Origin: Minisyncoccota bacterium
Lineage (GTDB): Bacteria; Patescibacteriota; Microgenomatia; UBA1400; PJMF01
DNA length: 64,000 nt
NCBI GenBank assembly: GCA_009991965.1
Contig: JAACWQ010000005.1
Span: 22,700-86,699, forward strand
Direction of reading: 5' to 3'
Shown piece by piece: positions 120 to 36,100 of the stretch. Every line of letters begins with the position of its first letter. The first letter of the stretch is position 1. The position numbers were made by a program.

Positions 120-3100
120 TTAGGCAATCCAATAGCCCTGAATAAAAAGTACGCTGTTGTAGACTAACAAACTAAGGCTGAGGCAGAGTAGTAGTACTCG
201 AGCCATTTTATACCGATTGAGAATTTGTGCCCAGATGAAAAAAAGTGGGAAAGCGACGAGCAAATATCTGGGCATGCTCGACAGTGTGCCGGTCAGAGTC
301 GGAAGCAGCACGGCGCCAAGTGTAAAAACAAGCCAAGAAAGTGGAAGCTTGAGTTCAATTCTTTTCCAAAATCCGTATGCAATGGTACAAACTGCCAAAC
401 AGGTCAATACAAATTCTTGAAAATAGGTCAGCCAAATTCGGCTCATCGGTACGGTCAAAATAATTTTTAGCCCTCTCCAAACTGTTTGAGGTAAGAATAT
501 TAGTGTCTCTTGTCTGCCAGAGCCAAACTCTGATTGCACATGGAAAAAATACAACGGATCGTGGAACTCAGATTGCAAAAATGCCATAAATAAGCCTAAG
601 CCGGTCAGGGAGAGTAAAAAATAGAACAAGACACGCGCTGAGATTTTTTTTGTTTGTAAAAAAATCTCAAGTAATAACGCTGGCAAAATAAACACGCCAA
701 CCAAACGAGTCGAAATTGCTAAGCCAGTAGCTAGAGCAGCCAGTGGCCAAAGCTTTTTTTGGGCTGCTAAAAATGCACCGGTAGTGAAGAGTAAAAAAAA
801 GCTTTCTGAGTAGATTGCCCCAAAGAAAAATGAGGTGGGAAAAAGTAACAATAAGCCAATGGTGAGCCAAGTGGCTTTGTCAGAAATTCTTTGCCGTACG
901 AGTTTGTATAAGAAGTAGACGGCAAAGCTCAGAGCCACAAAATTCAAACCTACAGCAACTACTGTGTGAGATATACCAAACGAAATATACTTGACGATAA
1001 AAGGGAATGCAGGAAAAAAAGCTTGAATCAATCCCGTGCCAACGTAGCCCATTCTCATAATGGTAAGGTAATGTACGCCATCAAAGTTGGCCCATGAGTA
1101 GAGCCATTGCGGTAGGCCTAATTTGGCTAATAGATCGTAGGCATATGGAAAGCTTGGTTCGTAGGAAATGAATGCGGGGGCGATGAGACTTACAACGAAT
1201 AAGCCTATTCTCCAGACAAGAACAAGTACGAGAATTTTTTTGAGAAGTGATTTATCCACGAGGCTTCCTCATTGCAAAAATCAGTACACCAAAAGAAATA
1301 AGTGAGACCGCATTACCTATCAATCTGGCGGGAGTATTTTGGGTGAATAGAGTCATGACTTGATACGAGCCCGCAGGAAGCTCGTAGGCAATTCTGCCAG
1401 CAGATACATCATTGTGAATGTAGGAGACTGTTTTGTTTACTCCATCTTGGAGTACTGTGGTTTCCCAACCAGGGAAGTTCATGGTCGGTTCAATAATCGT
1501 CGTCTCAGTAGTTAGTAAAAGTGTATATTTTCGTTTACTACCGTTCCATGATTGAACCGTTATGATGCCCGCATCGGGCTGCAATAGTGTTGGTCTTGGT
1601 TGCCAATCGCCAATATCGGCGTACGTAAATTCTTTGGTTCTGTTTTCGTTTTGAGTACTCGTGCTTTGAGAAAAAACAGCATAGTCTAGGTTTGTTTTAT
1701 GAAAGTAGTCTATTGGCGAAAGTCGCAGCAATGAAATTACTTGGAATAAAAGAAGCACTACGAGTAGCCTCAAAATCAACTTACTTTGACCCAATAAGAA
1801 CACCAAGCTTGGCAACAAGAGTGTGACTGTAAAAAGACTCAGACGCCAGGGAAACTGGAGAAAATGCAACGCTGGCACGAGCTCCCAAAGCGACTTACTC
1901 AACGATAATTGACCTACAACAGTCAGGCAAGCAAGCACAAACAACAATAAGAACGGCCCAGCTTGTGCCAATCGTTGGCGAATAAGCAGCGAGGTGCCAA
2001 CTCCCAGTAAAACCAGAATTGCAGGCAAACCAATTGCAAATGAGAGCGAGTCAACCCCGCCTAAGTAAGAAAAACCAAAGCGCAGAGGGCTCCAGAGCAA
2101 TTGACTCAAGGTTACAAAATGAGCGGAAAATTCTGAGACAAGCGATGCGTCGCCAACTACTACACTCGACATCTCTGCAAGCGCAGGTAACCAAAACCAG
2201 AGGCTCAAGCCGATTGCCCAAATTACTACTGCTAGGCTGGCTAGCAGTTTTTGTTTTGAACGATAGAAAAGTGCTAAACAAAGGACGATATATATGCCAC
2301 TCCCGACTACCGCCGAAATATTATGGCTGAGTAAGAAAGCCGTCAAAATGCCTACTCCAAACAGAGTATGACTTGACCTGAAAGTTATTTTTTTCTTGGC
2401 TGCTAGTGAATATGGTAGCCAAACAAGCCATGGTAGCAAGGAAAGAGCTAGAATTTCGCCGATATTGCCGCGAAAATAAATGGTTGAGACGAGATATGGC
2501 TGCAACAACCAAACAATCACACTCAACCAACGCACGTTTGGACTTGCTTTGAGAGTTTTTGTTAGTTGCCAGACTCCTCCAGCGCCAAATAAGACACTAA
2601 TTACTACTAGTAATTCAAAAGTAGTCTCGTACGAAACACCAATAAACGAGAATGGCAGGGAGAGAATATTTGCTAGGGGATAGTTGTAATTAAAAACAGG
2701 ATATCCATAGTGATTCATAAGATTTGGCGCAAAACGTGGTGGAATCTGCCCTTCTCTGAGTGCGATTTTGTAATTGGCAAACCGAGCTAGGTGATTTTCG
2801 CCATCATGTGTGTAAGGAAACTGGGAGTTGTAGTACAAATGGAACAGCGAGAAGAATGTTGCTGCGGCGAAGACAAAGAGGAGGAAGCGTTTCACAAAAG
2901 TGCTCTTTCGTATGCCGCAATGGTTGCTTGCGCAACTTTTTTCCAGGTAAATGTCTGACTCCAGGCTAAACCCTCGGCTACTAATTTTGTTCTATGGTCA
3001 TTTGTTAGCTCACTTACCAAAAGCACTTGCTCCGCCAGCGACTCTGCAGTTGGTTCACCGTAGAATACAAGCTCGCCACCAACCTCTGGCAATGAGCCGA

Positions 3101-33100: not shown

Positions 33101-36100
33101 TGCAATTCCCCAAGCTTCACTAACGGCGCCGCGAATAAACAGATTGACAGCTCGATACGGCGCAAGTGTTATGGCAGCCGACAACAACACGCCACCCAAT
33201 GAACCAAATAATCGTCTTCCTAAATAATACGCACCCACAACAGTAAGAAGGTTTGCGAGAAAGAAAATGCTCGAAACTGAAAATATAATTGATCCGCTCA
33301 ACCAAAATACCACTCCCCCAAAATAGTAGGGCAGAGGAGCATAAAATAAAAATAACGGCATGCCGTAGCCATAGCCGAAGTTCTTACTCCACTGCGGTGG
33401 AATGTGCCCATCTGCAACAGCTCGAGTCATCTCTGCAATCCGTGCTCCATGGGTAAAATCATGCACGCGAAAAAACCCAGAATGCAGCAATGGCCAGCTA
33501 CTGGCGAGTAGAATAAGTAGAAGCGCGTTAGCGACGAGTAATCTTCTCATGTATGATAAAGTTCATTGTAACTCAAGAGTATGAAACCAGTCACTCAGCA
33601 AGAACCAACTAACCTCAAAGAATTCTCTCTCGCCACTGTCGCCGTCAAGGCAACTGCTCTCGCAATCGCGTTTGTAGTGGGTTCACTTTTAGTACTCGCG
33701 CTCGTTGCAGCAGCCTTCGGTTACCGCTATTTGCAAAAAATTGGCAATGCAAGTAATCACAGCCCACAAGACTTGATTCAAATTGCTAAAACAGCGGCGG
33801 CCGTTGCTCCCAGAGAGAATAACCCTGTTTTTCTCATTCTCGGCACAGACTCACTAACAACAAGGGGTGATATTCCTCCACTCACCGACACAATGTTACT
33901 TGCGTCACTTGATTTAAAAACTGGAACACTGCATCTTTTGCCATTGCCGAGAGATATCTGGAACGAAGCTTACAAAACAAAAATCAATGCTCTCCTCGCT
34001 TACGGCATCGAGCGCTACCCAGAGAAACCTGAGCAATTTCCAGAGGAAGTCATAGAAGAAATGATTGGCATCCCAATAGATTACACAGTTGTAGTAGCCA
34101 TGGACACCCTAGCGGACCTCGTTGACACGCTCGGCGGAGTAGCAGTTTCTGTACCAACCAGCTTTATCGATACTGAGTTTCCTAATCCAGATGTTGATAT
34201 CACAATAGAGCGAGATCCAAAGAAGCTGTATAAAACTGTTTCATTTTCAAAAGGCACAGAAACTATGTCTGGGCAACGCTTTCTTGAGTTCATTCGAAGT
34301 CGACATAGTGACTCGGAGGAAGGCAATGATCTTGCCCGCTCCCAACGGCAACAAATTGGCTTTGCTGCTTTGCTTCAAGCAGCTACGCAAGAGTCTGTCG
34401 TAAAACAGCCCACCACTATTGGCAAACTCTTTGCTTTTTATGAATCAGCATATGTCACAGCACTCCCACTCAACGACATTGCCGCAATTGCAAAAGCAGT
34501 AGTAGAAAATTCTGTCTCAAGCGTTACGATAGATTCACGCACACTAACAGTTCGGCCCTCAGTCAAAGACGGCGTACTACTGCACCCAGATGCGAAAAAA
34601 ACAAATAATATTTGGCTGTATCAGATCACGGACGAAAAATTGTTTCGTGAGGAAGTCGGCCAAGCTCTAAATAAACTATAAAACATGAAACAACCCATTG
34701 AGCCAAATCGAATTATCCAGTTTTTAATGATAATAATAATACTTTTGGCACTATTTGCTGGGTACTATCACGCCCTCTACCAGACAGAAGTACGCAAAGC
34801 CGAAGAGCTTCGACAGACACAAATTGATATACTACCTACATCAGAATTATGAGCATGCACCCACAATTTCCACTAACAGTACTTGTGACCGGTGGGGCCG
34901 GTTTTATTGGCTCCAATTTTATTCACTACTGGCACAAAAAATATCCTGATGACCGTATTCGTAATCTTGATGCACTAACCTATGCTGGAACGCTCGAAAA
35001 TCTGCGTGACATCGAGTCTGACACAAGCTATTCATTTTTACATGGTTCAATCACCGATAAAGAATTTGTGGCAAAGGCAATGGAAGGTGTGGACTATGTT
35101 GTTCACTTTGCCGCAGAGAGTCATGTTGATCGTTCAATTTTAAATCCACAAATTTTTCTCGACACAAACATTATTGGCACCCAAGTATTACTCGATGCTG
35201 CTGTTACCCAACAAGTAAAACGTTTTCACCACATTTCGACTGACGAAGTGTTTGGTACGCTCGAACTTGGACACCCTGGCAAATTTACTGAAAATACACC
35301 GTATAACCCGAGAAGCCCCTATGCCGCAAGCAAAGCCGGCTCCGACCATCTCGTCCGAGCCTATGGAGAAACATATGGACTTCCCTACTCAATTACAAAC
35401 TGCTCAAATAACTATGGTCCAAATCAGTTTCCAGAAAAATTGATCGCGCTTGCAATTACAAACGCTCTAGAAGGCCGTAAAGTTCCTGTATACGGTGATG
35501 GCATGCAGGTCCGCGACTGGTTATTTGTGCTTGATCACTGCTCAGCAATTGAAAGCATTCTTTTGAGTGATCAGCTTAATACCACCTTTTTAGTTGGCGG
35601 CGAGACAGAGGAAACAACCAATCTTGAGGTCATCAAGTATGTTTTGAAATCAATGGACCTTCCAGAAAGTAATATTGAGTACATTTCTGATCGACCTGGA
35701 CACGACCGCAAGTATAGTGTCGACTGGTCGCATATCAACAAAACACTTGGCTGGAAACCGAGCGTCACACTCCAAGAAGGCTTGACTAAAACTATCGAGT
35801 GGTACCGAGCCAATGAAGCTTGGTGGCGCCCACTCAAAGAACAAAATAAAGCGTATTTCACAGCACAGTATCAGGATAGGAAGTAAACAAAGGAGAAGTA
35901 ATGGAAATTCATAGTGATATAGCGCCAAAAGTGACTCGACAAAGTTATGAAAAAAAACCAAAAATTGATGGGGTTGAGCTTGTTTCCCTAGCAGTTATGC
36001 AGGATGACGGCGGCTACTTTGCCGAATTAGCTCGTCTTGATGCAGGCAATCTTACAGCTTTCTCTACTCCAATCTCTGTCAAACAAATTAGTCTCTCCCA

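Follow-up and report, generated by a model that had tools for sequence, protein, structure and literature searches.

Four paralogous membrane proteins of a Patescibacteria glycan island as probable GT-C-fold glycosyltransferases with one invariant aspartate in their first outer loop

Among the closest described counterparts of the proteins considered here is the YfhO family, in which YfhO of B. subtilis and S. aureus transfers N-acetylglucosamine (GlcNAc) onto lipoteichoic acid. Other members are Lmo1079 of L. monocytogenes, which adds GlcNAc to wall teichoic acid, and the streptococcal PgtC2, PgfM1, and PgfM2, which act in protein O-glycosylation. The catalytic residues of YfhO were not predictable by the authors who characterized it (PMC5836110). 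Solved enzymes of the GT-C fold carry their catalytic aspartate after the first transmembrane helix (TM1), where the first juxtamembrane helix (JM1) has its tip, as shown by D58 of PimE and its counterparts in ALG6, ArnT, and PglB (PMC12041525; see also PMC11127046). Here, we analyzed a 64-kb stretch of Minisyncoccota DNA (contig JAACWQ010000005.1, positions 22,700 to 86,699, hereafter the window), a cell-surface glycan island that encodes four paralogous polytopic proteins. We consider it probable that these are integral-membrane glycosyltransferases of the GT-C fold (GT-C_A class) and of the PF10131/YfhO-like lineage, with polyprenyl-phosphate sugars as their likely donors.

The four open reading frames (ORFs) that an earlier note on this DNA had pointed out were all present in the ORF calls, namely paralog 1 (1252..2895, minus strand, 547 residues), paralog 2 (9204..10895, plus strand, 563 residues), paralog 3 (12830..14518, plus strand, 562 residues), and paralog 4 (31892..33550, minus strand, 552 residues). 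Residue numbers below follow paralog 1 unless paralog 4 is named. The ATG start of paralog 3 at 12830 is backed by an equally long top representative (P0121, 562 residues). Pairwise BLASTP comparisons, with E-values computed at a nominal database size of 1e8, revealed full-length homology at 23-29% identity (E 1e-11 to 1e-34), and the MAFFT alignment gave 24-29% identity to its first sequence. Paralog 2, the most divergent of the four, is itself a full-length homologue of the other three (E 1e-11 to 5e-25).

Paralogs 1, 3, and 4 pass the gathering cut-off of the Pfam family PF10131 (PTPS_related, 26.4 bits) with 46.0, 28.3, and 43.4 bits, respectively. This family belongs to the Pfam GT-C clan CL0111 and is listed as "function unknown" (PMC7801869), which agrees with the claim that it is biochemically almost uncharacterized; our searches for literature linking PF10131, or the candidate phyla radiation, to GT-C enzymes found nothing specific. 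The matches span positions 2-334 of the 621 of the profile, that is its first half only, and begin at residues 68-88, so that TM1 and the conserved loop described below lie outside them. More generally, whether to PF10131, YfhO, or AftD, each Pfam match starts somewhere within residues 55-88, and none reaches that loop block. In paralog 4, weak additional matches point to PMT_2 and to YfhO (PF09586), the latter covering the C-terminal 53 residues only (profile positions 777-829 of 835) and scoring 25.2 bits, under the cut-off of 28.5; no YfhO match was found by Pfam in paralogs 1, 2, and 3. Several orthologues go further, since P0008, P0013, and P0020 pass the YfhO cut-off at 51-59 bits, and orthologues also match GT-C_AftD (PF11847), PMT_2, and, in many cases, PF10131. 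The sole NCBIfam match was weak, C-terminal, and directed to PgfM1 and PgfM2. One orthologue bears the NCBI name "6-pyruvoyl-tetrahydropterin synthase-related protein", and we rejected an enzymatic function of that kind because no such synthase domain was found by Pfam; the family name is misleading.

The block that the earlier note had located right after TM1 is real and, by sliding-window identity, is the best-conserved part of the four-way alignment. It corresponds to PYTHDGENHLARFANYKIALREGQIPPRFAPNLMNHYGYPVF in paralog 1 (residues 27-68; 2692..2817, minus strand), whose D31 is the candidate catalytic aspartate, to YTAHDIWHQVARLYHYSTLVSLGEFPPRWVFDLAQGFGYPLF in paralog 2 (residues 32-73; 9297..9422, plus strand), to FDTHDIEYHAARTANYYLALQQGQVPPRWSPNLNYSFGLPTF in paralog 3 (residues 31-72; 12920..13045, plus strand), and to FRVHDFTHGARIAEMTRAVADGHIPPQWSKNFGYGYGMPLF in paralog 4 (residues 27-67; 33350..33472, minus strand), where D31 stands between TM1 (residues 2-22) and a loop helix (residues 34-46). 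Mean pairwise identity reaches 41% in the block versus 26% over the whole protein, and only 3 of 572 sliding 41-column windows score higher, all of them overlapping the block. H30, D31, A37, R38, G49, P52, P53, G64, P66, and F68 are identical in all four paralogs. The pattern first written for this block was real in substance but its spacing was wrong by one residue in three places, and the corrected consensus reads HD-x4-5-AR-x8-12-G-[QEH]-[IVF]-PP-[RQ]-[WF]-x3-[LF]-x4-G-[YLM]-P-x-F. Three paralogs have a spacing of 7 from the aspartate to the arginine and the remaining one a spacing of 6, and in paralog 1 the aromatic residue lies 2 positions ahead of HD rather than 3. A six-frame scan of the window for HD-x4-6-AR returned the four paralogs and one unrelated site (50562-50591); the block of this family shows up in no further ORF of the window. 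We found no description of the loop motif itself in the searchable literature.

Whether the motif is conserved in wider homologues had been set beforehand as a test, for which we relied on a set of 138 sequences, 134 of them representatives less than 50% identical to each other, and on a diverse set of 128 proteins from genome loci, which includes 62 neighboring tandem paralogues chosen by no motif. D31 is kept in 138/138 and 127/128 sequences, the exception being a gap. Its partners are kept less evenly: H30 is found in 134/138 versus 84/128 sequences (Ser in 28 and Gln in 9 of the diverse set, where Asn also occurs), and R38 in 138/138 versus 93/128 (Trp in 26, Asn in 9). Further along the block, Q50 is kept in 125/128 of the diverse set, P52 in 125/138 and 128/128, R54 in 112/138 and 126/128, G64 in 138/138 and 128/128, and P66 in 137/138 and 128/128; when 28 sequences covering the two sets were aligned, D31, P52, G64, and P66 showed no variation. 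In addition, an Asp or Glu occurs two positions after D31 in 119 of the 128 diverse-set homologues (HDD, SDD, QDD, HDGE, HDE), which, judged by sequence, is the classical DDx/DEx motif of GT-C enzymes (PMC5836110). Tandem paralogues from Microgenomates have other residues in place of the His and the first Arg (SDD..HIAW, QDD..AFR, HDE..AN), and most of them have the classical DD or DE pair. Within these arrays, the loop motifs differ systematically among copies (HDDxQxxR, SDDxHxAW, QDDxQAFR), and in some arrays the seed copy keeps GQIPPRF/W. The motif therefore withstood this test. However, the invariant HD pair and arginine that had been put forward hold for the nearer subfamilies and not for the diverse set, and the comparison reduces them to one invariant aspartate with subfamily-specific partners.

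The universally invariant proline and G-x-P of the block look structural, and this raises the question of whether the block as a whole could mainly be a folding element of the first loop, with catalysis located elsewhere, for example at H191 or at an FPWR motif. In favor of this, P52, G64, P66, and F68 are invariant or nearly so in both sets, and H191, P237, and R351, which lie outside the block, are as invariant as D31. Both sets keep H191, P237, W337, and the FPWR motif, R351 included, almost without exception; in paralog 4, this second motif (F351-P-W-R354; 32489..32500, minus strand) stands just ahead of a transmembrane (TM) helix, with F351, P352, and R354 invariant and W353 nearly so across 122 sequences. 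Its arginine is kept in 138/138 and 127/128 homologues and is a candidate ligand of the donor phosphate, an arginine ahead of a late TM helix being a known GT-C feature (PMC7801869). However, D31 is as invariant as any glycine or proline of the block, and structure alone seldom accounts for a conserved charge next to the membrane interface; it occupies the position of the catalytic aspartate of solved GT-C enzymes, and a second acid follows it in the large majority of homologues. We therefore regard a mainly structural role of the block as improbable.

An AlphaFold2 model of paralog 4, built with 122 sequences, reached a pLDDT of 95 and a pTM of 0.94. Foldseek searches of the PDB with this model returned nothing but GT-C enzymes at ranks 1-24 (probability 0.89-1.00, TM-scores 0.31-0.47), among them AglB (3waj, the top match, E 8.6e-4), AftA (8if8), AftD (6w98), STT3, EmbC, ArnT (5f15), PglB (5ogl), AftB, and ALG9, with DPY19, Pmt4, and PimE lower in the list. 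The modeled fold is thus clearly of the GT-C class, whose GT-C_A members share a conserved module of seven TM helices along with JM1 and JM2, with no close solved relative. Within the model, TM1 (residues 2-22) is followed by the H30-D31 loop, by helix 34-46 carrying R37, by G48-H-I-P-P-Q-W54 and G63-M-P-L-F67, and by helices 66-69 and 72-85. As modeled, this layout is the TM1-JM1-JM2-TM2 arrangement of GT-C_A enzymes, and D31, which stands 9 residues past TM1 and 3 ahead of the first loop helix, lies at the position of the catalytic aspartate in the solved enzymes. Up to residue 240, DSSP assigns strand or bridge to F26-F27, S55, and M64 alone; since these positions flank the HD, PPxW, and G-x-P sub-motifs, a mutual pairing of the three is probable in the model.

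Regarding the overall topology, each paralog shows 9-10 hydropathy peaks, in keeping with the 8-13 or more TM helices of GT-C proteins, a short basic N-terminus (MKR, MRR, and similar), and a basic C-terminal tail, which together place both ends in the cytoplasm and the loop and a beta-rich domain outside the cell. Pfam and Foldseek concur with the earlier placement of the block in the first extracytoplasmic loop of a putative GT-C-fold transferase of lipid-linked sugars. The roughly 150-residue beta-rich soluble domain described at the end of each protein is real, and both peptides given as examples, TVQSWNGSKRKYTLLLTTE and IVSWNGSRMEYRVNVSE, are present, but this segment (about 125-155 residues) is followed by a C-terminal TM helix and a basic tail: it is located between the penultimate and the last TM helix, with gaps of 133-155 residues between the last two hydropathy peaks. 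The model of paralog 4 is all-helical up to about residue 397, its beta-rich extracytoplasmic domain (residues 398-524; 31979..32359, minus strand) has its DSSP strands at 447-521 and a conserved FPGW motif, and its TM anchor (residues 525-551; 31898..31978, minus strand) precedes the tail EKKK. Local Foldseek matches of this domain point to beta-sandwich domains of glycoside hydrolases (ranks 40, 43, 48, and 50).

This anatomy resembles that of YfhO in its polytopic GT-C core, in the placement of an extracytoplasmic domain between the penultimate and the final TM helix (PMC5836110), and in its C-terminal strands and TM anchor, which match positions 775-830 of the 835 of the YfhO profile as well as PgfM1 and PgfM2. 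By contrast, the outer domain counts 389 residues in B. subtilis YfhO (PMC5836110), the window proteins stay under the PF09586 cut-off and come from Patescibacteria rather than Firmicutes, and the YfhO matches begin at residue 65 or later, leaving the HD..R block uncovered. The likeness to GT-C_A enzymes that use monophosphate donors is structural, with Foldseek probabilities of 0.91-1.00 for ArnT, AftD, AftA, AftB, and Pmt4 and of 0.47 for PimE (9dm7), with query-normalized TM-scores from 0.27 (PimE) to 0.44 (AftD), and with an acidic residue past TM1 and ahead of the first juxtamembrane helix. The window proteins nevertheless differ from these enzymes by their C-terminal beta domain and TM anchor and by their HD-x5-6-R ... 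GQxPPRW ... GYPxF motif, which had no counterpart in the profile search of the PDB.

We also weighed the view of the earlier note, according to which His-Asp and Arg would bind metal and pyrophosphate, in the form of an oligosaccharyltransferase- or ligase-like activity by which at least paralog 4 would, with a divalent metal bound, move a Wzx-flipped polyprenyl-PP-oligosaccharide en bloc to a protein or wall acceptor. The genomic context lends this some appeal: the stop of paralog 4 overlaps by 4 nucleotides the start of a Wzx-type flippase gene (30423..31895, minus strand, 490 residues; Polysacc_synt_3, E 3.8e-47), paralog 4-like arrays are linked to Wzx in about 20 Microgenomates loci, the cytoplasmic GT2 and GT4 enzymes of the operon could build a lipid-linked oligosaccharide, and an LCP gene lies divergently. 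The best Foldseek matches likewise include AglB, STT3, and PglB, which are metal-dependent users of pyrophosphate donors, STT3 and PglB having query-normalized TM-scores of about 0.39-0.47. Yet, oligosaccharyltransferases score no better in Foldseek than the monophosphate-donor enzymes AftA, AftD, and ArnT, the window proteins have a small beta sandwich as their C-terminal domain, with a TM helix after it, the WWDxG motif is lacking (W[WA]D[YWFN]G in 0/4 paralogs), and the four paralogs have no Pfam match to STT3 (PF02516) at E<=1. The nearest sequence families, YfhO, AftD, and PMT_2, are all users of monophosphate donors; the replacement of the His by Ser or Gln and of the first Arg by Trp or Asn in many homologues is unexpected for essential ligands of metal or pyrophosphate, and Wzx-type flippases also serve C55-P-GlcNAc systems, as does GacK with GacL (PMC8035078). 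The absence of WWDxG and of an STT3 match, the variable His and Arg, and the occurrence of Wzx in C55-P-GlcNAc systems thus disfavor the metal/pyrophosphate reading, and we hold an oligosaccharyltransferase-like activity to be unlikely; that the DD/DE pair was remodeled into His-Asp plus a helix-borne Arg, with loss of the second acid in two of the four window paralogs, as a mark of metal-binding, pyrophosphate-donor chemistry seems a little more doubtful still. If it were true, the window proteins would represent a new class of bacterial oligosaccharyltransferases or ligases specific to the cell envelopes of the candidate phyla radiation. By sequence, three of the four paralogs are PF10131 members, none belongs to YfhO by the curated threshold, and none would be classed as an oligosaccharyltransferase.

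The genes surrounding the four paralogs, which overlap them by 4-17 nucleotides when coordinates are compared by hand, bear on the likely donors of a monophosphate-using transferase. Paralogs 2 and 3 share a plus-strand operon with a PMT_2 GT-C gene, a polytopic ORF, and a GT2 glycosyltransferase gene (10892..11608, 238 residues; Pfam Glycos_transf_2), which overlaps the stop of paralog 2 by 4 nucleotides and is translationally coupled to it. The best PDB sequence matches of this GT2 are the dolichol monophosphate mannose synthase 5mlz (E 5.6e-5) and the Und-P-Ara4FN transferase ArnC, which suggests that it is likely a polyprenyl-phosphate sugar synthase making a lipid-linked donor; it is akin to the CsbB/dolichol-phosphate-mannose-synthase type and, for paralogs 2 and 3, may be the counterpart of the CsbB-like operon partner of YfhO (cf. 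PMC5836110). Paralog 4 is the first gene of a minus-strand operon that also holds the Wzx flippase, four GT2, one GT4, and two further GT-C genes, with an LCP ligase gene in divergent orientation. After this LCP gene, three ORFs at 34849-37351 look like RmlB, RmlC, and RmlD (dTDP-rhamnose) from a reading of their translations. Paralogs 1 and 4 are adjoined only by other GT2 and GT4 types. Downstream, the window encodes a GT2 fused to a GtrA domain (57464-58654, minus strand), a dolichol-phosphate-mannose-synthase-like GT2, a GDP-mannose dehydratase, and a UDP-glucose dehydrogenase. This gene set matches the Gram-positive multicomponent transmembrane glycosylation systems, in which the C55-P-sugar formed by a GT-A enzyme crosses the membrane with the help of a GtrA- or Wzx-type flippase before a GT-C enzyme transfers the sugar (PMC8035078).

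The same context allows one to ask whether the paralogs are enzymes of this kind at all, given that the GT-C fold is also found in the noncatalytic PIG-U (PMC7801869, PMC12041525). They could then be nonenzymatic GT-C-fold proteins, Wzy-like polymerases, or proteins recycling the carrier lipid, all the more so as no Wzy-type polymerase was identified in the island, where four polytopic ORFs (120-1259, 11605-12846, 21247-22725, and 53888-55174) have no family. We find this very unlikely, because the invariant set of acid, His, and Arg is typical of active GT-C enzymes, because the expansion of paralogs and their tandem arrays fit a diversified specificity, and because the polyprenyl-phosphate sugar synthases encoded nearby call for GT-C transferases.

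Beyond the homology, fold class, topology, motif conservation, and gene context shown above, we infer, under the favored reading of monophosphate-donor GT-C transferases, a catalytic role for D31 along with the nature of the donor and acceptor, and propose the following scheme. Each paralog would be an extracytoplasmic GT-C transferase that works like YfhO and other GT-C_A enzymes and is made of a basic cytoplasmic N-terminus, TM1, an outer loop of about 50 residues, a TM core, the beta domain, and the TM anchor. D31 would act as the catalytic base that activates the acceptor hydroxyl to attack C1 of a polyprenyl-phosphate-linked sugar, when the rest of the block, that is the helix with H/Q and R, Q-x-P-x-R-[WF], and G-x-P-x-F, would scaffold the JM1-JM2 loop. 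The donor phosphate may be held by H191 and by R351 of FPWR, and by R38 or R54 where present. The donors would probably be polyprenyl-monophosphate sugars made by the neighboring dolichol-phosphate-mannose-synthase-like GT2s and then flipped across the membrane, and the acceptor would probably be either a rhamnose-containing, LCP-attached cell-wall glycopolymer or surface proteins. The paralogs would differ in sugar, linkage, or acceptor.

Several observations weigh against this reading. Paralog 2 passes no Pfam model, and paralogs 2 and 4 (2/4) have no acid at the second position of the classical motif. No sequence relatives were detected in the PDB with full-length or loop-only profiles: the four-paralog profile found no real relative, the 122-sequence profile gave only a match to AftD TM helices, over TM residues 82-204, at a nonsignificant E of about 2, and the 28-sequence loop-only profile returned chance matches only (a LysR regulator and a protease). 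The hhalign comparison with an eight-member PMT_2-like family of the window reached only 78% probability and put the DE motif of that family on A39-E40 instead of HD, an alignment too weak for residue mapping; the profile of that family had no matches in the PDB either, which leaves no bridging alignment via ArnT or PMT. Finally, it is solely neighboring genes and distant relatives that suggest the donor and the acceptor.

The principle that GT-C enzymes carry a catalytic aspartate in their first outer loop is established and would not surprise a specialist, a conserved acidic residue in this loop being a textbook signature of the fold. What the present comparison offers is a narrowing of the candidate catalytic residues to a single invariant aspartate, the His and the first Arg being specific to subfamilies, and thereby a precise mutagenesis target in a family where the active site is undefined even for YfhO, its model member (PMC5836110). 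The PF10131/YfhO-like GT-C family is very large, enriched in bacteria of the candidate phyla radiation, and biochemically untouched, and the surface chemistry of Patescibacteria is essentially uncharted. The conserved cassettes and tandem arrays described next point to candidate enzyme-donor pairs, and a biochemically validated member might be expected to define a new CAZy family.

Around paralog 1, the order GT-C (DE type), GT2, GT4, paralog 1, and a 379-residue polytopic ORF is conserved in about 30 Patescibacteria species genomes (L001-L034, compared with window positions 120-7649) and looks like a fixed functional module. The cassette often continues into an NAD-dependent epimerase/dehydratase-like gene and a dolichol-phosphate-mannose-synthase-like GT2. 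In Microgenomates (Daviesbacteria, Woesebacteria, and Shapirobacteria; L037-L079), paralog 4-like genes form tandem arrays of 3-4 copies, often followed by Wzx, which was counted within 3-kb flanks in the loci mentioned above.

A database search with paralog 4 retrieved more than 1,000 homologues, mostly from Pacebacteria, and an exhaustive profile search put the number of representative clusters at 20,532 for E<=1e-3 and at 5,975 for E<=1e-30. When GTDB species genomes were scanned with the PPRW pattern as the seed, all loci were titled as or resembled Patescibacteria (Paceibacterota, Daviesbacteria, Woesebacteria, Shapirobacteria, Beckwithbacteria), and a tblastn search against plasmids gave one partial and irrelevant match only. 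Many cassette-bearing contigs (e.g., L011, L013, L040-L044) go under the title "uncultured Pseudomonadales" or "uncultured Gammaproteobacteria", and a single one under "Clostridia"; mislabeling of these records of metagenome-assembled genomes is probable. Some representatives contain several units (among P0122, P0123, P0124, and P0126): P0122 (1116 residues) has two complete motifs, at residues 42 and 572, and in P0124 (3329 residues) six stretches are matched. Either true fusions of several GT-C units or merged gene calls may account for this.

In total, about 19 polytopic GT-C-like ORFs are found in the window (within 120-25916 and 52354-57451). They include the four polytopic ORFs without family, three PMT or PMT_2 matches (7657-9204, 52354-53895, and 55937-57451), and the above-mentioned eight-member paralog family, which carries a D-E (once E-E) motif after TM1 (4732-6234, 6231-7649, 14448-16142, 16106-17878, 17895-19586, 19577-21271, 22733-24343, and 24306-25916). 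In most of the GT-C types examined, an acidic motif of their own occurs no more than about 20 residues past TM1.

Elsewhere in the window, a reading of translations revealed a van-like row (48919-52340), which is unexpected in a small genome of the candidate phyla radiation. It comprises ORFs resembling an Asp/Glu racemase (48919-49638), a D-Ala-D-Ala ligase (49635-50714), and a VanX-type D-Ala-D-Ala dipeptidase with the motif SHHLTGGAVD (50711-51487), all three on the minus strand, as well as a response-regulator-like ORF (51669-52340). A 177-residue plus-strand ORF (37370-37903) lies wholly inside a minus-strand ORF that reads as TrmD-like (37256-37990) and is very probably a spurious antisense ORF, as are, very probably too, the plus-strand ORFs 52724-53269, inside 52354-53895 (minus strand), and 58232-58840, opposite 57464-58654 and 58658-59644 (both minus strand).

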